Source: an uncultured cyanobacterium (GTDB lineage Bacteria > Cyanobacteriota > Cyanobacteriia > Cyanobacteriales > CAWUOF01). Taken from it: DNA of 64,000 bases. Made by a program: the position numbers and the translations under genes. Under the pieces are notes generated by a model that saw only the letters and a list, made by a program, of their open reading frames with translations, made no database searches and was not told the origin of the DNA. Position 1 is the first letter of the stretch. The number at the start of each line of letters is the position of its first letter. Positions 13,348 through 49,465 of this stretch are shown here, one piece after another. The stretch lies in contig CAVUSO010000001.1 in assembly GCA_963744145.1 (NCBI GenBank), forward strand, positions 2,496,001 through 2,560,000, read 5' to 3'.

Positions 13348-14076
13348 ATGACTCGACCAACATCAGGAATCCAACTCTATCTCCAAAGATTAGCAGCATT
13401 AAATGCTAGTGATATTTATACTCGTTTACCTAATGATAGCTTTGCATTAGATTGGTTAAACACTAATAAAGAACCTCCGACTTATCAAGAATGGATTAAT
13501 TTATTAACAAAGGAAGCTCACGCGATCTCCAAATTACAAGATGATCAGCGTCTGATCATCTTGCTGGGGGATTCGATCAGCTTGTGGTTTCCTCCCGATT
13601 TACTCCCCACCCAGCGGTTATGGTTAAATCAAGGAATTTCTGGAGATACAATAGCAGGTATTCTGAGAAGGTTATCAGTTTTTGACCAAACTAGACCAAA
13701 TGCAATTTATATTCTCGCTGGTGTTAATGATCTAAAAAATTGTGTCAGCGATCGCACGATTCTCAAGAATTACCGCGAATGTTTGCTCAAATTACACCAC
13801 AATCATCCGCAAACTCAACTAATTGTGCAATCAATTTTACCAACAGATTTACCTAGTCAGATTTTAACGATGAAAATTCCTAATAGTAGAATTAATCAGC
13901 TTAATCAACAGCTAAGAGAATTAGCGAATCAAGAAAATGCTAGCTATTTGGAACTTCATTCTCACTTTCTAGATCAAGCAGGTAAATTAAAACCAGAACT
14001 AACTACAGATGGACTTCATCTTAATTATCAAGGATATAAAATTTGGCAATGGATTTTAGCACAAACAGAATCGTGA
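13348..14076 (+). CDS. SGNH/GDSL hydrolase
   Basis: GDSI, NQGISGD, AGVND and DGLH blocks. Confidence 0.88.
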   Translation: MTRPTSGIQLYLQRLAALNASDIYTRLPNDSFALDWLNTNKEPPTYQEWINLLTKEAHAISKLQDDQRLIILLGDSISLWFPPDLLPTQRLWLNQGISGDTIAGILRRLSVFDQTRPNAIYILAGVNDLKNCVSDRTILKNYRECLLKLHHNHPQTQLIVQSILPTDLPSQILTMKIPNSRINQLNQQLRELANQENASYLELHSHFLDQAGKLKPELTTDGLHLNYQGYKIWQWILAQTES

Positions 14077-14294
14077 TCAAAAACAATCTAAGTTCTCCTG
14101 TTTTAGTTGTTAATCAAACTATTGATATTCCGACCCAGTTAAGTTAAAGAAAATCTATTTCGGTTCCAAGTTAATCGGTACATCTTTTTAGCCCAATTCC
14201 TCGCGAGTTAGCGATCGCCCATTTTCTAGTTTGGGGGTGGATAAGTCCTCGTCCCAACTCCTTTTCACCAAAATGTTAAGTTTTGTTAAGCAAG

Positions 14295-14313
14295 TGAGGG
14301 GTATCACCCCTCA
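14295..14313. promoter_or_regulatory. HetR-type inverted repeat, copy 1
   Basis: TGAGGGGTATCACCCCTCA; same arms as the hetP HetR site GAGGGGTCTAACCCCTC as recalled (GGG-N5-CCC core); TATATT -10 at 14319-14324. Confidence 0.7.
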
Positions 14314-14332
14314 TAGGGTATATTACTAATAT

Positions 14333-14377
14333 GTAGATGCACCCTGATGGACACGCCCAGTTTTTTGGGCGTTTTTT
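14333..14377 (+). ncRNA. NsiR1-like small RNA, copy 1 (~45 nt)
   Basis: -10 box, then GTAGATGCACCCTGATG, then terminator ACGCCCA-GTTTTT-TGGGCGT-TTTTT; duplicated at 14498. Confidence 0.65.
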
Positions 14378-14455
14378 ATTTTTGGGGCATAAATATCTAG
14401 TTAATCTTGATCTTAAGTCCCACTGATGGCAATATGTAAATTTTTGTGAATCAGT

Positions 14456-14476
14456 ATGAGGGGTTTCACCCCTCAT
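14456..14476. promoter_or_regulatory. HetR-type inverted repeat, copy 2
   Basis: ATGAGGGGTTTCACCCCTCAT with perfect 9-bp arms; extended -10 TGcTATAGT at 14479-14487. Confidence 0.7.
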
Positions 14477-14497
14477 CATGCTATAGTAAATATCAAT

Positions 14498-14542
14498 GTA
14501 GATGCACCCTGATGAACACGCCCCGATTTGTGGGCGTTTTTT
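14498..14542 (+). ncRNA. NsiR1-like small RNA, copy 2 (~45 nt)
   Basis: GTAGATGCACCCTGATG identical to copy 1; terminator ACGCCC-CGATTTGT-GGGCGT-TTTTT with conserved stem and changed loop. Confidence 0.65.
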
Positions 14543-14783
14543 GTTTTTGGGGTATAAATAATGTATTCAGCCATTAATTAAGAGGGACATACTTGGACTT
14601 TGGGGACTGAGTTAGTCGAAGTAATCAAAATCTGGAAGTATAAAGTAAAATAAGATTGCCCACATAATTTTTGGATTTTCTGGCTGATTGAGAGCAAATA
14701 TGCCAAAAAATAAGGTAGTTTGGAGCGTTCAGATCGTCCAATTAAAGGAATCTGCTGAAAATTAGGTCGGGAAATTGTCAAGC

Positions 14784-15623
14784 ATGATCAAGCAAATTAG
14801 TCAAACACCCATCAGTTTCTTTGCTGGTGCCACCTATCCCTGTCAAGCTTTCGTCATTCTTAGTAGTAACCCCCGTCTTTGGGGCTATGTCATCCTGCCC
14901 ATTTTAGTAAATCTAGTGGTTGGGATTGGTCTTTATGTCGCTTTGCTATTTCCGAGCTTGGCTGGAATTGATACTCTAGTTGTCAATTTAGAGGTTAAAA
15001 TCAATAACTTAATCACTGGTCTACCTGCTTGGTTAATGCTCTTCGACTATTTGGCCGTAGGATTAGGTTGGTTGTTAAGATTAATTTTAGTGACTGGGTT
15101 ATTATTAGCGATCGGTTTTTTGTTAGTCCAATTTGGGGTAGTGTTGGGGGCTCATTGGTATGGTCAACTGTCTGAGCAACTGGAAGAAATTCGCACTGGT
15201 AAACTGCCAAAAATACCATCAAATAGTATTAAGGCAATTTTTGAAGATCTGAGTAGAGCGTTGTCATTTGAGGTAAAAAAATTACTGCTCGGCCTGCAAA
15301 TTGGGATACCATTACTATTAATCAATTTCCTGCCTGGACTTGGTTCGGCGATCGCGAGTATTGGTGGAGTTATTTTAGGTGCAACGTTGATTTGTCTAGA
15401 TTTTTTAGATGCTCCTTTAGAAAGACGAAGGCTAGAATTTCGGGAAAAATTAAAGATGATTCGTCAGAGTTTACCAGCTAGTGCCAGTTTTGGTTTAGTT
15501 TGTCTAGGTTTAAATAGTATTCCGATTCTAAATTTACTCACCATTCCTTTATGTGTAGCTGCCGGGACGTTGTTTTTTTGCGATCGCATTGCGCCAATTG
15601 TTGATGATCCGACCAGTAAATAA
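14784..15623 (+). CDS. EI24/CysZ-like membrane protein
   Basis: Multiple TM helices; WYGQLSEQLE and CLDFLDAPLERRRL motifs of cyanobacterial EI24-domain proteins. Confidence 0.75.
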   Translation: MIKQISQTPISFFAGATYPCQAFVILSSNPRLWGYVILPILVNLVVGIGLYVALLFPSLAGIDTLVVNLEVKINNLITGLPAWLMLFDYLAVGLGWLLRLILVTGLLLAIGFLLVQFGVVLGAHWYGQLSEQLEEIRTGKLPKIPSNSIKAIFEDLSRALSFEVKKLLLGLQIGIPLLLINFLPGLGSAIASIGGVILGATLICLDFLDAPLERRRLEFREKLKMIRQSLPASASFGLVCLGLNSIPILNLLTIPLCVAAGTLFFCDRIAPIVDDPTSK

Positions 15624-16040: not shown

Positions 16041-19000
16041 GTGAGCAAAATGCAGAGGTTAATAACAGCATTATTAAGAATATTATCTACAGAAATTACA
16101 TTCTTTAAAAGCAATAAAGGTAATACTAATATTAGTAATCCGGCTGATCCAATTCCTGTTATTAATCAGAATCAGGATAATTCTTCAAACACTAATACTA
16201 ATATTAGTAAGCCTGCCGATCCAATTCCTGTTATTAATCAGAATCAGGATGATTCTTCAAAGTCTTCATCGGTTCAGCCAACTATCTCTAGTGGGGTGAA
16301 TAGCAATTATCAAATCCAACAGGAAATCTACGAGGGAGTGAAAATTGCCTATCCGCAAATCAGTCAGTTAGGTAATGACCAGATTGAGCAGAAGATTAAT
16401 ACTTTAATCAAGAAGGATGCTTTAAGTGTATTAGATGGGTATCAAGGGAATTTACACCAGCTCATATTAGATTTAAAGTATGAAGTGAAATACCAAGGTA
16501 GTGATTTTTTAAGTATCAAGTATTTAGGTTTTGCTTCTAAAAAAGGAGCCGCCTATCTCAGTAATGTGATTTACACGACCACGATTGATTTATCCCAGCA
16601 AAAGGTGGTAGCATTAAAGGAATTAGTCACAGTAGATGACAATTTTGTTGAGAAATTCAATGCTGGAAAATATGTCCCTTATAGCGCCTCATCAGATTTA
16701 CAAACTCAAGCAATTCTAGAACGTGCTAAGGGGGAAAGTAATCAGTCGATTAAAGAAAGGTTGAATGATGAGCAGGCTAAGTATTATTTGACAGGAAATT
16801 CTCTCGTAGTTAGTAGTGAGGTGATCCATGCCCTCGGAGATCACTTTGAACTAGAATTAGATTATCCAGTGACTCCATCGGTTCAATCAACTGTCGCCGG
16901 TACCCTCAATAGTAATTATCAAATCCAACAGGAAATCTATGAGGGAGTGAAAATTGCCTATCCGCAAATCAGTCAGTTAGGTAATGACCAGATTGAGCAG
17001 AAGATTAATACTTTAATCAAGAAGGATGCTTTAAGTGTATTAGATGGGTATCAAGGGAATTTACACCAGCTCATATTAGATTTAAAGTATGAAGTGAAAT
17101 ATCAGGGTAGTGATTTTTTAAGTATCAAGTATTTAGGTTTTGCTTCTAAAAAAGGAGCAGCTTATCTCAGTAATGTGATTTACACGACCACGATTGATTT
17201 AGCCCAGCAAAAGGTGGTAGCATTAAAGGAATTAGTCACGGTAGATGACAATTTTGTCGAGAAATTCAATGGGGGGAAATATGTCCCTTATAGCGCATCG
17301 TCGGATTTACAAACTCAAGCAATCCTAGAGCGTGCTAAGACGGAAAGTAATCAGTCGATTAAAGAAAGGTTTAATAATGATCAGGCTAAGTATTATCTGA
17401 CGGGAAGTTCTCTCGTAGTTAGTAGTGAGGTGATCCATGCACTTGGGGATCACTTTGAACTAGAATTGGATTATCCTGTGATTCCATCGGTTCAACCAAC
17501 TGTCGCCGGTACCCTCAATAGTAATTATCAAATCCAACAGGAAATCTATGAGGGAGTGAAAATTGCCTATCCGCAAATCAGTCAGTTAGGTAATGACCAG
17601 ATTGAGCAGAAGATTAATACTTTAATCAAGAAGGATGCTTTAAGTGTATTAGATGGGTATCAAGGGAATTTACACCAGCTCATATTAGATTTAAAGTATG
17701 AAGTGAAATATCAAGGTAGTGATTTTTTAAGTATCAAGTATTTAGGCTTTGCTTCTAAAAAAGGAGCAGCTTATCTGAGTAATGTGATTTACACTACCAC
17801 GATTGATTTAGCCCAGCAAAAGGTGGTAGCATTAAAGGAATTAGTCACAGTAGATGACAATTTTGTCGAGAAATTCAATGGGGGGAAATATGTCCCTTAT
17901 AGTGCATCGTCGGATTTACAAACTCAAGCAATCCTAGAGCGTGCTAAGACTGAAAGTAATCAGTCGATTAAAGAAAGGTTGAATAATGATCAGGCTAAGT
18001 ATTATCTGACGGGAAATTCGCTCGTAGTCAGTAGTGAGGTGATCCACGCTCTGGGAGATCACTTTGAACTAGAATTAGATTATCCAGTGACTCCATCTGT
18101 TCAACCAACTGTCACCGGTCCACTCAATAGTAATTATCAAATCCAACAGGAAATTTATGAGGGAGTGAAAATTGCCTATCCGCAAATTAGCCAGTTAGGT
18201 AATGACCAGATTGAGCAAAAGATTAATACTTTAATCAAGAAGGATGCTTTAAGTGTATTAGATGGATATCAAGGGAATTTACACCATCTCATATTAGATT
18301 TAAAGTATGAAGTGAAATACCAAGGTAGTGACTTCTTAAGTATCAAATATGTAGGTTTTGCTTCTAAAAAAGGAGCAGCTTATCTCAGTAATGTGATTTA
18401 CACCACCACAATTGATTTAGCCCAGCAAAAGGTGGTAGCATTAAAGGAATTAGTCACGGTAGATGACAATTTTGTCGAGAAATTCAATGGGGGGAAATAT
18501 GTCCCTTATAGTGCATCGTCGGATTTACAAACTCAAGCAATTCTAGAGCGTGCTAAGACGGAAAGTAATCAGTCGATTAAAGAAAGGTTGAATAATGATC
18601 AGGCTAAGTATTATCTGACGGGAAGTTCTCTCGTAGTTAGTAGTGAGGTGATCCATGCCCTCGGAGATCACTTTGAACTAGAATTAGATTATCCAGTGGC
18701 TCCATCCGTTCAACCAACTGTCACCGGTCCACTCAATAGTAATTATCAAATCCAACAGGAAATCTATGAGGGAGTGAAAATTGCTTATCCGCAAATTAGT
18801 CAGTTAGGTAATGACCAGATTGAGCAGAAGATTAATACTTTAATCAAGAAGGATGCTTTAAGTGTATTAGATGGGTATCAAGGGAATTTACACCAGCTCA
18901 TATTAGATTTAAAGTATGAAGTGAAATATCAAGGTAGTGACTTTTTAAGCATTAAGTATTTAGGTTTTGCTTCTAAAAAAGGAGCAGCTTATCTCAGTAA

Positions 19001-22000
19001 TGTGATTTACACCACCACGATTGATTTAGCCCAGCAAAAGGTGGTAGCATTAAAGGAATTAGTCACGGTAGATGACAATTTTGTCGAGAAATTCAATGGG
19101 GGGAAATATGTCCCTTATAGTGCATCGTCGGATTTACAAACTCAAGCAATTCTAGAACGTGCTAAAGCAGAAAGTAATCAGTCGATTAAAGAAAGGTTGA
19201 ATGATGAGCAAGCTAAGTATTATCTGACGGGAAATTCTCTCGTAGTTAGTAGTGAGGTGATCCATGCTCTGGGAGATCACTTTGAACTAGAATTAGATTA
19301 TCCAGTGGCTCCATCCGTTCAACCAACTGTCACCGGTCCACTCAATAGTAATTATCAAATCCAACAGGAAATCTATGAGGGAGTGAAAATTGCTTATCCG
19401 CAAATTAGTCAGTTAGGTAATGACCAGATTGAGCAGAAGATTAATACTTTAATCAAGAAGGATGCTTTAAGTGTATTAGATGGGTATCAAGGGAATTTAC
19501 ACCATCTCATATTAGATTTAAAGTATGAAGTGAAATATCAAGGTAGTGACTTTTTAAGTATCAAGTATTTAGGTTTTGCTTCTAAAAAAGGAGCAGCTTA
19601 TCTCAGTAATGTGATTTACACTACCACGATTGATTTAGCCCAGCAAAAGGTGGTAGCTTTAAAGGAATTAGTCACGGTAGATGACAATTTTGTCGAGAAA
19701 TTCAATGGGGGGAAATATGTCCCTTATAGTGCATCGTCGGATTTACAAACTCAAGCAATTCTAGAACGTGCTAAAGCAGAAAGTAATCAGTCGATTAAAG
19801 AAAGGTTGAATGATGAGCATGCTAAGTATTATCTGACGGGAAATTCGCTCGTAGTTAGTAGTGAGGTGATCCACGCCCTCGGAGATCACTTTGAACTAGA
19901 ATTAGATTATCCAGTGACTCCATCTGTTCAACCAAGTGTCACCGGTCCACTCAATAGTAATTATCAAATCCAACAGGAAATTTATGAGGGAGTGAAAATT
20001 ACCTATCCGCAAATTAGCCAGTTAGGTAATGACCAGATTGAGCAAAAGATTAATACTTTAATCAAGAAGGATGCTTTAAGTGTATTAGATGGATATCATG
20101 GGAATTTACACCATCTCATATTAGATTTAAAGTATGAAGTGAAATACCAAGGTAGTGACTTCTTAAGTATTAAGTATTTAGGCTTTGCTTCTAAAAAAGG
20201 AGCCGCCTATCTGAGTAATGTAATTTACACTACCACGATTGATTTAGCCCAGCAAAAGGTGGTAGCATTAAAGGAATTAGTCACGGTAGATGACAATTTT
20301 GTCGAGAAATTCAATGCGGGGAAATATGTCCCTTATAGCGCCTCATCAGATTTACAAACTCAAGCAATTCTAGAGCGTGCTAAAGCAGAAAGTAATCAGT
20401 CGATTAAAGAAAGGTTGAATGATGAGCAAGCTAAGTATTATCTGACAGGAAATTCTCTCGTAGTTAGTAGTGAGGTGATCCATGCCCTGGGAGATCACTT
20501 TGAACTAGAATTAGATTATCCCGTGACTCCATCGGTTCAATCAACTGTCGCCGGTACCCTCAATAGTAATTATCAAATCCAACAGGAAATCTATGAGGGA
20601 GTGAAAATTGCCTATCCGCAAATTAGTCAGTTAGGTAATGACCAGCTTGAACGCAAGATTAATACTTTAATCAAGAAGGATGCTTTAAGTGTATTAGATG
20701 GGTATCAAGGGAATTTACACCAGCTCATATTAGATTTAAAGTATGAAGTGAAATATCAAGGTAGTGACTTTTTAAGCATCAAGTATTTAGGTTTTGCTTC
20801 TAAAAAAGGAGCCGCCTATCTGAGTAATGTGATTTACACTACCACGATTGATTTAGCCCAGCAAAAGGTGGTAGCTTTAAAGGAATTAGTCACGGTAGAT
20901 GATAATTTTGTTGAGAAATTCAATGGGGGGAAATATGTCCCTTATAGTGCCTCATCAGATTTACAAACTCAAGCAATTCTAGAGCGTGCTAAGGCGGAAA
21001 GTAATCAGTCGATTAAAGAAAGGTTTAATGATGATCAGGCTAAGTATTATCTGACGGGAAGTTCTCTCGTAGTTAGTAGTGAGGTGATCCATGCCCTCGG
21101 AGATCACTTTGAACTAGAATTGGATTATCCTGTGATTCCATCGGTTCAATCAACTGTTACCAGTACCCTCAATAGCAATTATCAAATCCAACAGGAAATC
21201 TACGAGGGAGTGAAAATTGCCTATCCGCAAATTAGTCAGTTAGGTAATGACCAGCTTGAACGCAAGATTAATACTTTAATCAAGAAGGATGCTTTAAGCA
21301 TATTAGATGGATATCAAGGGAATTTACACCAGCTCATATTAGATTTAAAGTATGAAGTGAAATACCAAGGTAGTGACTTTTTAAGTATCAAGTATTTAGG
21401 TTTTGCTTCTAAAAAAGGAGCCGCCTATCTCAGTAATGTGATTTACACCACCACGATTGATTTAGCCCAGCAAAAGGTGGTAGCATTAAAGGAATTAGTC
21501 ACGGTAGATGATAATTTTGTTGAGAAATTCAATGGGGGGAAATATGTCCCTTATAGCGCCTCATCAGATTTACAAACTCAAGCAATTCTAGAACGTGCTA
21601 AGGGGGAAAGTAATCAGTCGATTAAAGAAAGGTTGAATGATGAGCAGGCTAAGTATTATCTGACGGGAAATTCTCTCGTAGTTAGTAGTGAGGTGATCCA
21701 CGCCCTCGGAGATCACTTTGAACTAGAATTAGATTATCCAGTGGCTCCATCTGTTCAACCAACTGTCACCGGTCCACTCAATAGTAATTATCAAATCCAA
21801 CAGGAAATTTATGAGGGAGTGAAAATTGCCTATCCGCAAATTAGTCAGTTAGGTAATGACCAGCTTGAACGCAAGATTAATACTTTAATCAAGAAGGATG
21901 CTTTAAGTGTATTAGATGGATATCAAGGGAATTTACACCAGCTCATATTAGATTTAAAGTATGAAGTGAAATATCAGGGTAGTGACTTTTTAAGTATTAA

Positions 22001-22973
22001 GTATTTAGGCTTTGCTTCTAAAAAAGGAGCCGCCTATCTTAGCAATGTGATTTACACCACCACGATTGATTTAGCCCAGCAAAAGGTGGTAGCATTAAAG
22101 GAATTAGTCACGGTAGATGATAATTTTGTTGAGAAATTCAATGCTGGAAAATATGTCCCTTATAGCGCCTCATCAGATTTACAAACTCAAGCAATCTTAG
22201 AACGTGCTAAGGGGGAAAGTAATCAGTCGATTAAAGAAAGGTTGAATGATGAGCAAGCTAAGTATTATCTGACGGGAAATTCTCTCGTAGTCAGTAGTGA
22301 GGTGATCCACGCCCTCGGAGATCACTTTGAACTAGAATTGGATTATCCCGTGATTCCATCGGTTCAACCAACTGTCATCGGTACCCTCAATAGTAATTAT
22401 CAAATCCAACAGGAAATTTATGAGGGAGTGAAAATTGCCTATCCGCAAATTAGTCAGTTAGGTAATGACCAGCTTGAACGCAAGATTAATACTTTAATCA
22501 AGAAGGATGCTTTAAGCATATTAGATGGATATCAAGGGAATTTACACCAGCTCATATTAGATTTAAAGTATGAAGTGAAATATCAGGGTAGTGACTTTTT
22601 AAGTATTAAGTATTTAGGTTTTGCTTCTAAAAAAGGAGCCGCCTATCTCAGTAATGTGATTTACACCACCACGATTGATTTAGCCCAGCAAAAGGTGGTA
22701 GCATTAAAGGAATTAGTCACGGTAGATGACAATTTTGTCGAGAAATTCAATGGGGGGAAATATGTCCCTTATAGTGCATCATCGGATTTACAAACTCAAG
22801 CAATCCTAGAGCGTGCTAAAGCGGAAAGTAATCAGTCGATTAAAGAGAGGTTTAATGGTGATCAGGCTAAGTATTACTTGACAGGAAATTCTCTTGTGGT
22901 TAGTAATGAGGTAATCCATGCACTTGGGGATCACTTTGAACTAGAGTTGGACTATCCGGTTGTAAAAAAATAG
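16041..22973 (+). CDS. Giant 2310-aa protein of 11 tandem DUF4163/DUF3298 (PdaC/RsiV-like) modules
   Basis: Uninterrupted ORF; unit IxYPQI...KINTLIK...YEVKY...LSIKY...GAAY...TIDL...LKEL resembles DUF4163-type domains (recognition only). Confidence 0.75.
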   Translation: MSKMQRLITALLRILSTEITFFKSNKGNTNISNPADPIPVINQNQDNSSNTNTNISKPADPIPVINQNQDDSSKSSSVQPTISSGVNSNYQIQQEIYEGVKIAYPQISQLGNDQIEQKINTLIKKDALSVLDGYQGNLHQLILDLKYEVKYQGSDFLSIKYLGFASKKGAAYLSNVIYTTTIDLSQQKVVALKELVTVDDNFVEKFNAGKYVPYSASSDLQTQAILERAKGESNQSIKERLNDEQAKYYLTGNSLVVSSEVIHALGDHFELELDYPVTPSVQSTVAGTLNSNYQIQQEIYEGVKIAYPQISQLGNDQIEQKINTLIKKDALSVLDGYQGNLHQLILDLKYEVKYQGSDFLSIKYLGFASKKGAAYLSNVIYTTTIDLAQQKVVALKELVTVDDNFVEKFNGGKYVPYSASSDLQTQAILERAKTESNQSIKERFNNDQAKYYLTGSSLVVSSEVIHALGDHFELELDYPVIPSVQPTVAGTLNSNYQIQQEIYEGVKIAYPQISQLGNDQIEQKINTLIKKDALSVLDGYQGNLHQLILDLKYEVKYQGSDFLSIKYLGFASKKGAAYLSNVIYTTTIDLAQQKVVALKELVTVDDNFVEKFNGGKYVPYSASSDLQTQAILERAKTESNQSIKERLNNDQAKYYLTGNSLVVSSEVIHALGDHFELELDYPVTPSVQPTVTGPLNSNYQIQQEIYEGVKIAYPQISQLGNDQIEQKINTLIKKDALSVLDGYQGNLHHLILDLKYEVKYQGSDFLSIKYVGFASKKGAAYLSNVIYTTTIDLAQQKVVALKELVTVDDNFVEKFNGGKYVPYSASSDLQTQAILERAKTESNQSIKERLNNDQAKYYLTGSSLVVSSEVIHALGDHFELELDYPVAPSVQPTVTGPLNSNYQIQQEIYEGVKIAYPQISQLGNDQIEQKINTLIKKDALSVLDGYQGNLHQLILDLKYEVKYQGSDFLSIKYLGFASKKGAAYLSNVIYTTTIDLAQQKVVALKELVTVDDNFVEKFNGGKYVPYSASSDLQTQAILERAKAESNQSIKERLNDEQAKYYLTGNSLVVSSEVIHALGDHFELELDYPVAPSVQPTVTGPLNSNYQIQQEIYEGVKIAYPQISQLGNDQIEQKINTLIKKDALSVLDGYQGNLHHLILDLKYEVKYQGSDFLSIKYLGFASKKGAAYLSNVIYTTTIDLAQQKVVALKELVTVDDNFVEKFNGGKYVPYSASSDLQTQAILERAKAESNQSIKERLNDEHAKYYLTGNSLVVSSEVIHALGDHFELELDYPVTPSVQPSVTGPLNSNYQIQQEIYEGVKITYPQISQLGNDQIEQKINTLIKKDALSVLDGYHGNLHHLILDLKYEVKYQGSDFLSIKYLGFASKKGAAYLSNVIYTTTIDLAQQKVVALKELVTVDDNFVEKFNAGKYVPYSASSDLQTQAILERAKAESNQSIKERLNDEQAKYYLTGNSLVVSSEVIHALGDHFELELDYPVTPSVQSTVAGTLNSNYQIQQEIYEGVKIAYPQISQLGNDQLERKINTLIKKDALSVLDGYQGNLHQLILDLKYEVKYQGSDFLSIKYLGFASKKGAAYLSNVIYTTTIDLAQQKVVALKELVTVDDNFVEKFNGGKYVPYSASSDLQTQAILERAKAESNQSIKERFNDDQAKYYLTGSSLVVSSEVIHALGDHFELELDYPVIPSVQSTVTSTLNSNYQIQQEIYEGVKIAYPQISQLGNDQLERKINTLIKKDALSILDGYQGNLHQLILDLKYEVKYQGSDFLSIKYLGFASKKGAAYLSNVIYTTTIDLAQQKVVALKELVTVDDNFVEKFNGGKYVPYSASSDLQTQAILERAKGESNQSIKERLNDEQAKYYLTGNSLVVSSEVIHALGDHFELELDYPVAPSVQPTVTGPLNSNYQIQQEIYEGVKIAYPQISQLGNDQLERKINTLIKKDALSVLDGYQGNLHQLILDLKYEVKYQGSDFLSIKYLGFASKKGAAYLSNVIYTTTIDLAQQKVVALKELVTVDDNFVEKFNAGKYVPYSASSDLQTQAILERAKGESNQSIKERLNDEQAKYYLTGNSLVVSSEVIHALGDHFELELDYPVIPSVQPTVIGTLNSNYQIQQEIYEGVKIAYPQISQLGNDQLERKINTLIKKDALSILDGYQGNLHQLILDLKYEVKYQGSDFLSIKYLGFASKKGAAYLSNVIYTTTIDLAQQKVVALKELVTVDDNFVEKFNGGKYVPYSASSDLQTQAILERAKAESNQSIKERFNGDQAKYYLTGNSLVVSNEVIHALGDHFELELDYPVVKK
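16121..16262 (+). repeat. 72-bp direct repeat x2 (24 aa)
   Basis: NTNISxPADPIPVINQNQDxSS twice; DNA copies start at 16121 and 16193. Confidence 0.9.
16299..22961 (+). repeat. 11 x 609-bp intragenic tandem repeat
   Basis: AATAGYAATTATCAAATCCAACAGG recurs at exact 609-bp spacing from 16299 to 22389. Confidence 0.98.
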
Positions 22974-39671: not shown

Positions 39672-39744
39672 GCGCTCTTAGTTCAGTTGGTAGAACGCAG
39701 GTCTCCAAAACCTGATGTCGGGGGTTCAAGTCCTCCAGGGCGCG
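39672..39744 (+). tRNA. trnW: tRNA-Trp (CCA)
   Basis: GCGCTCT acceptor stem, anticodon loop CTCCAAA, T-loop GGTTCAAGTCC; conserved position between rplS and secE; 3' CCA not encoded. Confidence 0.97.
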
Positions 39745-42038: not shown

Positions 42039-42096
42039 TCAACTTAACTATTGAGGGATCAGCTAACGCCCAAAATTCAACAACTGAATCAGCGAG

Positions 42097-42233
42097 GGCC
42101 AAAGACAGCAGGGGCTAATGCGCTTAATTTCCTGCCGAGGTTTACTCTAATTTCCCAACTGGTCATAGGTTTGACTAATTCAACCTGGATCAATGGGAAA
42201 TGGGGAACCCCGGCTCAATCTCCGGGGTTTTTT
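42097..42233 (+). promoter_or_regulatory. L10 leader with terminator/attenuator hairpin
   Basis: CCAAAGACAGCAGGGG...TTAATTTCCTGCCGAGG core; AACCCCGG-loop-CCGGGGTTTTTT at 42206-42233. Confidence 0.85.
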
Positions 42234-42286
42234 GATTGGTTTTGGGCAAATATCGGTTTTTAGCAACCAGTTAAGGAGGTGAGAAA

Positions 42287-46867: not shown

Positions 46868-49465
46868 TTAATCCGGTTCACCGATCAGAGTAAAAGCTGC
46901 CCAATCGGTAGGAAATGGATGTTTTTGCATTGTACTCAGCATTGCATTTCTTAGAGCGCGAGCTTTATCAGGATTTTGCCGAAGATTTTGATAAAATTCA
47001 TTCATCAAGTCAGCTGTAGGAGCATCAGGAATTGACCAAAGGGTAACAATCGCACTGGGAACACCAGCAGTAATTAAGGAACGACTTAGACCAATCACAC
47101 CATCCCCAGTAATTCTCCCTTTACCAGTATTACAAGCACTTAACACTACTAAATCAGCGTTTAGTTTTAATTTCAGAATTTCATTAGCAGTGAGTAGTCC
47201 ATTATCTTGACCACTTGGGGCTAAAGCGATCGCACCTGGAACTCCTAATCCTTCAATATCATCTAGTAATCCATGGGTGGCTAAATGAATTATTCGCGCT
47301 TTGGTCATTGCTGCTAAAATTTTGGCTTTGGTAGCATCTGAGCCAATAATTGCTTCAGTATTGAGTAATTTGGCAATTGTTTTTGCTTCTATTTCTGCTC
47401 CAATCAGTTGGGGAAGGGGTTGTGGGGGGTCTCCCACACTAGGCATTTTCGGGTTTCCCACTACTACTATATCTCTTGGTAGTCCGACGATCAAGGCACT
47501 TTGGGCACCAGATTGTTGATTTTTTTGTTTTTGTTGCCAGGTTAAATCTAATACTTGAATTGCTGGTGCAGTCAAAATGGTATGCTGTTCAATTAAGTAT
47601 TTATCTTGTTGATCTTTTAACGCGGGAAATGGGATCAAAAATAACTCTTTTTGCGGAATAAAAATAACTCTTTCCGTTGGGTCTGTAGGTAATAAATCAG
47701 CGATCGGAGCAATTAATATTTGATGAAGAAGCTTTAATTTAGAACTAGCTAAAGATCCTTGATATTGAAATAAAGCATTTCGACTTTTCAGAAAAATATC
47801 TCGGATATCCAGGATTTTTTTGGGATTTAGATTCGAGCTAGTTCTGGTAAATTCAGTTAGTTTCTGCTCTGTACCTGTTTGCTGATTGAGCGATTGTAAA
47901 TTAACTTCACGAAATCCAATTTCACCAGTAGGTTTAACTACCCAGATGTACAGATATTCATTTAAAATAATTGAATATTCAACTAGGGTAGCATGATGTT
48001 GTTTAGCAATTTGTTTGATTTGGTTAATATTAGGTGGAGTTATTTCCATTGATGTCGATGAATCTGTAGCTAACCGTTTTGCTAATAATTCTACAAATGC
48101 TCTGGCTCTTCCACGCTCTGCTATTTCTAAACTTTCATTAATTTTTTTTTCTTGAATCAATACTTGTTGTAAGTTATCGTAAGCACTAGCTTGGGTATCA
48201 AATAAGGAAATTTTATTAGTATCTTGAACTAATTCAGAGCGAATCGATTCTTGAATGGCGATCGCTGTTCTTAATTTTGCTTCTGCTTCTGGTAATTTTC
48301 CTAAATCTAATAAAATTGTTGCAATATTATTTAAGGAAGTGATTTCCCCTAACCGATCGCCAATTTGTTGTCTAATTGCTAAGGATTTTTCCTGGTAATC
48401 AAGTGCTGATTGATTTTGCTTTAAAGCTAATTCTAAATTTCCCAAATTATTCAGAGTATTAGCTTCTCCCACGCGATCGCCAAGTTGTTGATTTGCAACT
48501 AAAGATTTTGCCAAAAAATCCCTAGCTTGCTGATAATCATTCAGATACAAATAGGTCAATCCAATATTTCCTAAACAACTAGAGATCCCAATTTGATTAC
48601 CAATTTTTTGATCAATTTCTAAAGATTGTTGATAATATTTAACTGCTTCATGATAGTTTTTAGTATCGCTGTAAACATTACCTAGATTACCGAGAGCATT
48701 AGCTTCATAGAGAAGAGCGCCAATTTTTTGAGCGAGAGCTTGTTGTTGTTTATAAAAATCAATGGCTTTTTCATATTGACCGATATAATAGTAAGCATTA
48801 CCAACATTACCAAGAGATTCAACTATACTTGGTTGATCCTGAAGTTGTTGGGAAATAGCTAAAGATTGTTGATGGTAATCTAATGCTTTTTGATATTGTG
48901 CCATGGAATAATAAACATTACCTAAATTTCCTAAAGCTCTACTAATAGCTGCTTGATCTCCCAACTCTTTCGCTAAATCTAAAGAGGGAAGGAGAAAATT
49001 AAGTGCTTGTTGATATTGTCCGAGACTTCGAGAAGACATCCCCAGATTATTGAGAGCATCTGCTTCCCCAGAGCGATTACCAAGCTCACGAAAAATTGTT
49101 AAAGATTGTTGATAATATTGGATTGCTTCGGGAACTTTTCCTATAGTATCATAGACAATTCCCAGATCAAGTAAAGAATCTGCAATTCCAGAGCGATCGC
49201 CAATTTGCTGATAAATTTTTAGTGCTGCTTGAAAAGATGTGATCGCTGCTGGATATTGACTGGTCTGTAATTGAGAAACTCCTTGTTTTTGTAGTTCAAT
49301 AGCTGTAGTTTTAGGATCAATTGAGGTTTGTGCCCATCCAGATTCAGAATGTAATAGCTGCACCGGAATACCAATAGTCAGAGTAGTTAAAAACAAATAT
49401 ACTATTGGTATTTTTAGAAACTGGAGAAATAGTTGGTTAATTTCTGTAAATTTTTGACAAGACAT
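46868..49465 (-). CDS. TPR-CHAT domain protein (caspase-HetF family)
   Basis: 40-aa TPR repeats; HLATHG and LSACNTG catalytic His/Cys are intact. Confidence 0.9.
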   Translation of the reverse strand: MSCQKFTEINQLFLQFLKIPIVYLFLTTLTIGIPVQLLHSESGWAQTSIDPKTTAIELQKQGVSQLQTSQYPAAITSFQAALKIYQQIGDRSGIADSLLDLGIVYDTIGKVPEAIQYYQQSLTIFRELGNRSGEADALNNLGMSSRSLGQYQQALNFLLPSLDLAKELGDQAAISRALGNLGNVYYSMAQYQKALDYHQQSLAISQQLQDQPSIVESLGNVGNAYYYIGQYEKAIDFYKQQQALAQKIGALLYEANALGNLGNVYSDTKNYHEAVKYYQQSLEIDQKIGNQIGISSCLGNIGLTYLYLNDYQQARDFLAKSLVANQQLGDRVGEANTLNNLGNLELALKQNQSALDYQEKSLAIRQQIGDRLGEITSLNNIATILLDLGKLPEAEAKLRTAIAIQESIRSELVQDTNKISLFDTQASAYDNLQQVLIQEKKINESLEIAERGRARAFVELLAKRLATDSSTSMEITPPNINQIKQIAKQHHATLVEYSIILNEYLYIWVVKPTGEIGFREVNLQSLNQQTGTEQKLTEFTRTSSNLNPKKILDIRDIFLKSRNALFQYQGSLASSKLKLLHQILIAPIADLLPTDPTERVIFIPQKELFLIPFPALKDQQDKYLIEQHTILTAPAIQVLDLTWQQKQKNQQSGAQSALIVGLPRDIVVVGNPKMPSVGDPPQPLPQLIGAEIEAKTIAKLLNTEAIIGSDATKAKILAAMTKARIIHLATHGLLDDIEGLGVPGAIALAPSGQDNGLLTANEILKLKLNADLVVLSACNTGKGRITGDGVIGLSRSLITAGVPSAIVTLWSIPDAPTADLMNEFYQNLRQNPDKARALRNAMLSTMQKHPFPTDWAAFTLIGEPD

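Follow-up and report, generated by a model that had tools for sequence, protein, structure and literature searches.

What are the two similar repeats that stand between a lipase-like and a CysZ-like gene of this uncultured cyanobacterium, and what would switch them on? They lie in a stretch of 64,000 nt of contig CAVUSO010000001.1 (assembly GCA_963744145.1), which is called the window here, and form two ~125-bp units in direct repeat at window 14274-14561. Their seeds are 165 bp apart, and the pairwise alignment of the units has 87% mean column identity over 145 columns. Each unit contains on the + strand, in this order, a palindrome, a -10 box, the seed GTAGATGCACCCTGATG, a terminator hairpin, a T-run, and a shared tail (Table 1). 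The units are probably paralogous genes of NsiR1, a known small RNA (sRNA) family, under the direct control of HetR, and would thus represent a second promoter class of that family. This reading is carried by the family resemblance of the RNAs, the match of the palindrome to a published HetR site, the conservation of the arrangement across genera, and its co-occurrence with hetR.

The first-pass annotation of the window had listed -10 boxes, an identical 5' sequence, stems, a U-tract, and a tail in two copies 165 bp apart, and all of these elements are found where it placed them. The sequence ATGTAGATGCACCCTGATG is identical in both copies (14331-14349 and 14496-14514), and GTAGATGCACCCTGATG begins at 14333 in copy 1 and at 14498 in copy 2, that is, 8 and 10 nt past the -10 box. 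The ACGCCC/GGGCGT stems differ between the copies in their loop, and the shared tail covers 14379-14395 and 14544-14560. The annotation had taken the spacer between the copies to be unrelated, which is true of only ~40 bp (roughly 14397-14434); elsewhere the repeat is longer and reaches ~60 bp upstream of the seed, taking in a perfect palindrome that had been missed. Both hairpins were recovered on the + strand by a terminator scan (3 sites vs 0.6 expected in shuffles). A sigma-70 scan found no -35/-10 pair at either copy, and the DIF1 motif TCCGGA is not present upstream of the window copies, in agreement with the annotation. The predicted start of the first sRNA is at 14331-14333 and its 5' seed at 14333-14349 would be single-stranded, as the fold of this RNA (-14.1 kcal/mol, z -2.16) leaves most of the 5' ~20 nt unpaired apart from one weak 2-bp stem. 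In the folds of both copies the 5' part is mostly open and the remainder makes up the terminator.

The Rfam model of NsiR1 (RF02399) matched copy 1 with 34.0 bits (E 5.7e-05) and copy 2 with 29.4 bits (E 7.9e-04) in a 551-bp search, and both 49-nt matches run end to end (model positions 1-60). The 5' consensus of the model, GGUAGAUGCACCCUGAU, is reproduced from GUAGAUGCACCCUGAU onward in both copies, with U for the first G of the consensus; the identity with the NsiR1 5' end that the annotation had proposed is hence confirmed by the covariance-model search. The deficit in score sits in the hairpin, which lacks 10-11 positions of the model; the predicted RNA of ~45-49 nt is indeed shorter than NsiR1. 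The tandem direct repeat with its own promoter for each copy, by which NsiR1 genes are also judged, is found here as two units with a 165-bp period. The concern that the unit may be a high-copy dispersed repeat is answered by the whole genome, in which Rfam NsiR1 has 14 matches at E<=1.

The palindrome is the part of the unit that points to HetR. HetR binds strongly to GAGGGGTCTAACCCCTC of the hetP promoter, and its crystal structures require GGG-N5-CCC (PMC4192349, in the available excerpt). The same excerpt describes the perfect repeat as absent from other HetR-regulated promoters of Anabaena (PMC4192349). Both window palindromes contain GGG-N5-CCC, their arms equal those of the hetP site at 12/12 positions, and each palindrome equals GAGGGGTCTAACCCCTC at 15/17 positions. 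In the 7.70-Mb genome, GAGGGG-N5-CCCCTC occurs at the two sites of the window only, and the reversed pattern occurs 0 times. The palindromes occupy the usual place of the -35 hexamer or of the DIF1 motif, and their centres precede the conserved G of GTAGATG by 29 nt in copy 1 (G14333) and by 32 nt in copy 2 (G14498).

Table 1. Coordinates (window positions) of the repeat units, their elements, and the neighbouring genes.
Feature	Position	Strand	Basis or detail
Repeat unit 1 (palindrome, -10 box, sRNA, terminator, tail)	14274..14396	+	pairwise alignment
Palindrome 1, TGAGGGG-TATCA-CCCCTCA	14295..14313	.	core GAGGGG-N5-CCCCTC 14296-14312, centre 14304
-10 box copy 1, TATATT	14319..14324	+	sequence; without -35 consensus upstream
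NsiR1-like sRNA copy 1 (predicted)	14331..14379	+	Rfam RF02399 match
Intrinsic terminator 1, 8-bp stem ACGCCCAG/TTGGGCGT + T-run	14353..14378	+	fold, terminator scan
Repeat unit 2	14435..14561	+	pairwise alignment
Palindrome 2, TGAGGGG-TTTCA-CCCCTCA	14457..14475	.	core 14458-14474, centre 14466
Extended -10 box copy 2, TGCTATAGT	14479..14487	+	sequence
NsiR1-like sRNA copy 2 (predicted)	14496..14544	+	Rfam RF02399 match
Intrinsic terminator 2, 6-bp stem ACGCCC/GGGCGT, 8-nt loop, T-run	14518..14543	+	terminator scan
Upstream neighbour, GDSL-like lipase/acylhydrolase	13348..14076	+	Pfam PF13472, 9.6e-26
Downstream neighbour, CysZ/EI24-family membrane protein	14775..15623	+	Pfam PF07264, 7.2e-39; NCBIfam CysZ below cut-off

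The arrangement of palindrome and seed is conserved across genera. An exact-pattern scan of one genome per prokaryote species (GAGGGG-N5-CCCCTC, 12-30 nt, TAGATGYACC) found 110 loci in public genomes, where ~3 are expected by chance at equal base frequencies; 1 of the 110, from a genome flagged as unpublished, was left out of all later counts. By record title, the non-heterocystous filamentous carriers include Moorena, Microcoleus, Microseira, Floridaenema, Aerosakkonema, Phormidium, and Symploca, and further Caldora, Coleofasciculus, Desertifilum, Leptolyngbya, Phormidesmis, Alkalinema, and Stenomitos. Heterocystous carriers, again by title, include Scytonema (up to 6 tandem copies), Brasilonema, Mastigocoleus, Iphinoe, and Tolypothrix campylonemoides. 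Within the host's order, an evenly drawn sample had the pattern in 44/401 genomes and 22/142 genera, host included, and the reversed pattern in 0. Positions that the pattern leaves free are conserved as well among the 123 units, with CTGAT after the seed in 122-123/123, C at the Y position in 123/123, T before the palindrome in 106/123, and A after it in 114/123. A TAnnnT hexamer is found in 117/123 units, mostly 8 nt before TAGATG (63 units). The distance from the palindrome centre to the seed separates a short class of 28-31 nt (32 units), to which the window pair belongs, from a long class of 33-37 nt (91 units).

The RNAs encoded at these loci would share the plan of the window pair. Among 92 non-redundant RNAs, nt 2-13 and 16 are invariant, and the 15-nt seed is unchanged in every homologue examined; 92/92 end in a hairpin of 6-14 bp with a T-run, in which per-sequence folds distinguish at least 6 unrelated stem sequences. 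For the 92 RNAs aligned with MAFFT, RNAalifold predicted 0 pairs because the unrelated stems are out of register. An invariant 5' part followed by free stems is the signature expected of a selected 5' seed and a free terminator. When 20 palindrome-type loci from elsewhere were run against Rfam, 3 passed the NsiR1 cut-off and 5 more scored 37.5-38.8 bits.

Nearly all of the tested carriers also have HetR. A HetR homologue at E<=1e-60 is present in 29/30 named carrier genomes, and the exception is a metagenome bin. Copies of the DIF1 type (TCCGGA, 24-38 nt, seed) are found in 24/30 of the same carriers (reversed control 0) and often form arrays, with 22 copies in a Moorena, 11 in a Caldora, and 10 in a Symploca genome; therefore, NsiR1 genes of both promoter classes are common in non-heterocystous cyanobacteria. 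Bins titled as Actinomycetota and Sphingobacterium contain palindrome-type NsiR1 together with a HetR homologue (87% and 52% identity to host HetR), and they look mislabelled or contaminated with cyanobacterial contigs. Two Scytonema records have tandem arrays of 5-6 palindrome-type NsiR1 genes with a ~143-bp period directly upstream of argJ, which mirror the DIF1-type arrays known from Nostoc.

Several observations weigh against the reading of the pair as HetR-activated NsiR1 genes. Both copies score below the gathering cut-off of RF02399 (39 bits), and a window-wide Rfam search at gathering thresholds does not report either of them; therefore, the window RNAs are NsiR1-like in sequence and plan, yet are not members by the Rfam cut-off. 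The fold of copy 2 (-10.2 kcal/mol, z -0.71) is no better than shuffles. The counts of loci, genomes, and units depend on a pattern that itself fixes the arms and ten bases of the seed. No conserved target was found in the hetR 3' untranslated regions (UTRs), the glycosyltransferase loci, or the argJ leaders. Relaxed palindromes are not enriched in the genome (5 vs 3 in the control at <=1 mismatch, 61 vs 125 at <=2 mismatches), so the perfect palindromes alone carry the argument. Two relaxed sites stand upstream of genes, namely a 2-mismatch palindrome at C1:3378222 before an ammonium transporter gene, with TATAGT immediately after it, and a 1-mismatch palindrome at C1:394534 before a 1652-aa TPS-CHAT gene; both may be due to chance, because the reversed control has at least as many degenerate sites overall. 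Lastly, the palindrome centres lie at ~-29 and -32 here vs -35 in the commoner class, a half-turn difference that is not obviously explained by a single activation geometry, and a palindrome overlapping the spacer from -35 to -10 could equally repress.

The position of the palindrome leads to the alternative that the sRNAs are real but HetR-repressed, in which case HetR on the palindrome would stand in the way of RNA polymerase, and transcription would take place where HetR is not active. A centre at ~-29/-32 in the window, and at -28 to -31 in 32/123 units, falls inside the core promoter, and a gene that is derepressed in a hetR mutant indicates that HetR can act negatively (PMC4192349, in the available excerpt). 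However, the promoters have no -35 hexamer such as an activator-independent promoter would need, the centre is at -33 to -37 in 91/123 units, so that the palindrome takes the place of the -35 element in the manner of an activator site, and the known member of the family needs HetR for its expression (PMC9045159, excerpt). Repression is thus considered unlikely, and it owes its standing as a rival to the half-turn by which the 29-nt and 35-nt classes differ.

Evidence on what the palindrome is comes from a locus shared by many carriers. At 39/77 long-class loci, gatB lies upstream and/or argJ downstream on the same strand (18 gatB only, 17 argJ only, 4 both), and gatB or argJ was found at 0/32 short-class loci; these counts are lower bounds, with only 300 bp of flank at many loci. 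The host has gatB at C1:1895672-1897141 and argJ at 1897366-1898604, with a diverged palindrome-type copy at 1897251 between them. In an unbiased sample of argJ loci taken independently of the palindrome (30 genomes, 29 families), the NsiR1 seed is present <=400 nt upstream of argJ in 8/30, gatB is in the same locus in 8/8, and the gatB - NsiR1 - argJ order of the host is also seen in 7 other families. GGGG-N5-CCC is centred exactly 35 nt before the G of the seed in 6/8 of the seed-bearing argJ loci, and in those six the outer bases of the arms vary without compensation, for example AAGGGG with CCCATC. A fixed position with non-compensated arms argues for a protein recognition site rather than an RNA hairpin.

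These loci bear on the suggestion that the palindrome is not a HetR site, being instead the site of another factor or a structural hairpin (for example, a remnant terminator) beside a HetR-free promoter. The palindrome can form a GC-rich hairpin of 7-8 bp, and its resemblance to a HetR site rests on one published site. Against this, no T-run follows the palindrome, the arms in the argJ set vary without compensation while GGGG-N5-CCC and the 35-nt distance are fixed, and both the presence of HetR in nearly all carriers and the full agreement of the arms with the hetP site favour HetR. We therefore regard a palindrome unrelated to HetR as rather improbable and retain HetR as its predicted partner.

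The shared gatB-argJ position across families also argues for vertical inheritance of the palindrome class. The window pair itself has no such context, as no GDSL or CysZ homologues were found at the 109 other loci, and it looks like a lineage-specific extra locus. The annotation had suggested an 'ancestral or alternative' NsiR1 module; the second term holds, and the first may apply to the palindrome class on account of its gatB-argJ position and does not apply to the window pair, whose position is not conserved. A tentative and somewhat doubtful extension is that the palindrome-driven NsiR1 was the original direct output of HetR, present before heterocysts, handed down vertically at the gatB-argJ position in lineages that range from Leptolyngbya-like to Scytonema-like forms, and later amplified as HetZ/DIF1 arrays.

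The argJ loci and the downstream CysZ gene are likewise relevant to the idea that the pair is a cis element, either a leader or attenuator of the cysZ-like gene or a small peptide encoded by the open reading frames (ORFs) at 14446-14577 (+) and 14276-14479 (-). The pair is co-oriented with the CysZ gene 230 nt downstream of it, and the RNA gene at the conserved locus is 73-348 nt upstream of argJ on the same strand. This idea is nevertheless extremely improbable, given two strong terminators in series, downstream genes that vary among loci, and argJ leaders without complementarity to the seed. The small ORFs do not cover both copies alike, and 15 invariant nt followed by free stems is a pattern of RNA conservation, on which peptides from the overlapping ORFs were set aside. 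Farther along the window there are a 2310-aa ORF with ~11 PdaC-like repeats (16041-22973, +), which draws many weak and spurious Pfam rows, as repetitive proteins tend to do, and an 865-aa TPR + CHAT protein (46868-49465, -), which is one of 78 CHAT-domain matches in the host genome. A tRNA gene (39672-39744) and a ribosomal protein L10 leader (42081-42242) are the only Rfam gathering-threshold matches in the window.

The NsiR1-like genes of the window are not alone in the host. Four of the genome-wide Rfam matches, all copies of the DIF1 type, are above the cut-off (48.6, 45.7, 40.5, and 39.3 bits), and DIF1-like promoters (TCCGGA or a one-base variant ~31 nt before the seed) are found at C1:2709636, 2709522, 1316360, 5237880, 5239217, and 7472675; the earlier premise of a genome without NsiR1 of the DIF1 type was hence wrong. 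The palindrome group consists of the window pair, C1:5239313 with a degenerate palindrome, and C1:1897251, which has AGGGGGTATTACCCCTC upstream and a changed seed start. A third group of three or four elements shares only TGCACCCTGAT. The elements at C1:443895, 3479548, and 5439943 have near-identical TGCACCCTGATTAAATACCTCACC...GGTGGGGTTTTTT after a shared upstream sequence, without palindrome or DIF1, and may be a third branch of the NsiR1 family. As the annotation had remarked, the window pair is away from hetF: its neighbours are the GDSL lipase and CysZ/EI24 genes and no CHAT/hetF-like gene adjoins it, nor was one found among the neighbours scanned at the other host copies.

The pair could be seen as a decaying, non-functional duplicate of NsiR1, given its sub-cut-off Rfam scores, the shorter hairpin, a position that is not syntenic with any of the 109 other loci, and degenerate relatives at C1:5239313 and C1:1897251. 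Such decay is very unlikely, since in both copies the palindrome and the 17-nt seed are still perfect, the -10 box is in place, and the terminator stem can still work, with the differences between them confined to loop and spacer. Moreover, several other genera retain the GACGCCC form with its short hairpin, among them Floridaenema, Aerosakkonema, Symploca, and Coleofasciculus.

The host is probably a non-heterocystous cyanobacterium that bears HetR. Its genome encodes one HetR (a 317-aa ORF, 266 bits vs PF03574), and in a HetR tree the host falls outside the clade (support 93/99) that unites the six sequences from heterocyst formers. Heterocyst formers are generally placed in one large GTDB family, and the GTDB family of the host has 2 genomes, host included. 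On the small family and the place of HetR in the tree, the non-heterocystous look of the genome, which the annotation had remarked on, is accepted as probable. The identities of host TrpE to 28 named genomes (62-73% throughout) and of host HetR (77-85%) are uninformative for placement. The TSLTS motif (PMC6985446) also occurs in non-heterocystous HetRs of the set, hence it is not diagnostic of heterocyst formation. The presence of nifH suggests that the host is possibly diazotrophic.

The targets of the RNAs were searched for with the seed. In Nostoc, NsiR1 targets the hetF 5' UTR and the hetP-like alr3234 (PMC9045159, in the available excerpt). A genome-wide duplex scan of the host gave ~11 non-self sites that beat the best reversed-seed control (-26.1 kcal/mol). 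The top site, 59 nt upstream of a WecG/TagA glycosyltransferase gene, was rejected as it is not conserved in 28 homologous loci, and seed complementarity in the argJ leaders of 22 loci was not above control. In the hetR 3' UTR (C1:6242430-6242476), the 12 nt that directly follow the stop codon complement nt 8-19 of copy 1 and extend into the 5' arm of the hetR terminator; similar matches occur in 4/30 other genomes with nothing in the rest, which makes this a lead only. HetF is a CHAT protease, and CHAT genes of the host give another lead. The paralogous giant TPS + CHAT genes at C1:2180232 and C1:2186217 (1893 and 2325 aa) both have GGGTGCATCTAC, which exactly complements NsiR1 nt 1-12, ~53 nt before the ATG and beside a hairpin, with a duplex energy within the control range. 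Among CHAT-gene leaders, 7/66 reach <=-16 kcal/mol vs 1 control, a count that is inflated by paralogues and again a lead only.

The preferred reading of HetR-controlled paralogues implies the following mechanism. The two genes would each produce, from their own promoter and terminator, a trans-acting sRNA of the NsiR1 family of ~45-49 nt. A HetR dimer would bind the palindrome and turn on a promoter whose sole other element is a -10 box. The 5' seed GUAGAUGCACCCUGAU, invariant and single-stranded, would pair with target mRNAs, and the 3' hairpin would serve only to terminate transcription and stabilise the RNA. Promoters with HetR-recognition sites are direct HetR targets, and those with DIF1 depend on HetZ, which is itself HetR-controlled (PMC7377430, excerpt). 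The palindrome-driven RNA would hence be a direct output of active HetR and the DIF1-type copies elsewhere in the genome an indirect output via HetZ, so that the two promoter classes may put the same seed under the direct and indirect arms of one circuit. Transcription, start site, HetR binding, activation over repression, and the targets are all inferred in this scheme from the layout of the units and from published work.

Such genes may be useful in several ways. The palindrome-type promoter bears on the role of HetR in filamentous non-heterocystous cyanobacteria; with its -10 box it is a candidate direct HetR target outside the model strain and could serve as a ready reporter of HetR activity in non-heterocystous organisms. 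One sRNA family made directly by HetR and indirectly through DIF1 would be a testable two-arm circuit. Further natural high-affinity sites would help to define the HetR DNA code, as hetP is described as the one Anabaena promoter with the perfect palindrome (PMC4192349, excerpt). If the palindrome-driven NsiR1 was the original HetR output, its seed would indicate a single conserved target central to HetR-patterned cell differentiation, common to all filamentous cyanobacteria, even those without a known differentiated cell type.

NsiR1 has been treated as an RNA of heterocyst formers with DIF1 promoters and a place near hetF (PMC6596454, PMC4030482, PMC9045159, in the available excerpts), and an NsiR1-like RNA of 57 nt is mentioned in Limnospira (PMC8400943). 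In the literature searched, palindrome-type NsiR1 was not found and papers on HetR with GAGGGG do not overlap with those on NsiR1; Mitschke 2011, Elhai & Khudyakov 2018, and Ionescu 2010 were outside this search and may mention such sites. What is new here, as far as that search goes, is a second promoter class, apparently under direct HetR control, and a far broader range of hosts for a known sRNA family.

Compared with NsiR1 of Nostoc/Anabaena sp. PCC 7120 (RF02399), the window pair has the same 5' sequence and the same plan of a single-stranded 5' part with a terminator hairpin, likewise in tandem copies with their own promoters. Expression of NsiR1 depends on HetR (PMC9045159, excerpt). 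In Nostoc it is described as specific to heterocysts. The differences lie in the length (~45-49 nt vs ~60 nt), in the promoter, which has a HetR-type palindrome in the window and the DIF1 motif TCCGGA in Nostoc nsiR1, and in the location, since NsiR1 of Nostoc is next to hetF with one copy antisense to the hetF 5' UTR and the window pair is elsewhere. In addition, the host is probably non-heterocystous, whereas the Nostoc host of NsiR1 forms heterocysts. The HetR site of hetP is, like the window palindromes, a 17-bp inverted repeat with identical 6-bp arms and T after GGGG; it precedes hetP, whereas the window palindromes precede an sRNA gene, differ in the central three bases, and are predicted HetR sites. 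The DIF1 promoters of patS, patX, hetR, and nsiR1 resemble the palindrome promoters in that the motif replaces the -35 element and only a -10 box is present, and both classes drive NsiR1-family genes in the same genomes. They differ in that DIF1 is HetZ-dependent and the palindrome would be recognised directly by HetR under the published model (PMC7377430, excerpt). Similarly, in the multicopy 'sibling' sRNAs (PMC9045159, excerpt), diverged copies share one seed and have targets that may be additive or divergent, as in the host. Unlike these siblings, the host copies differ in promoter class, which would alter timing or cell specificity beyond dosage.

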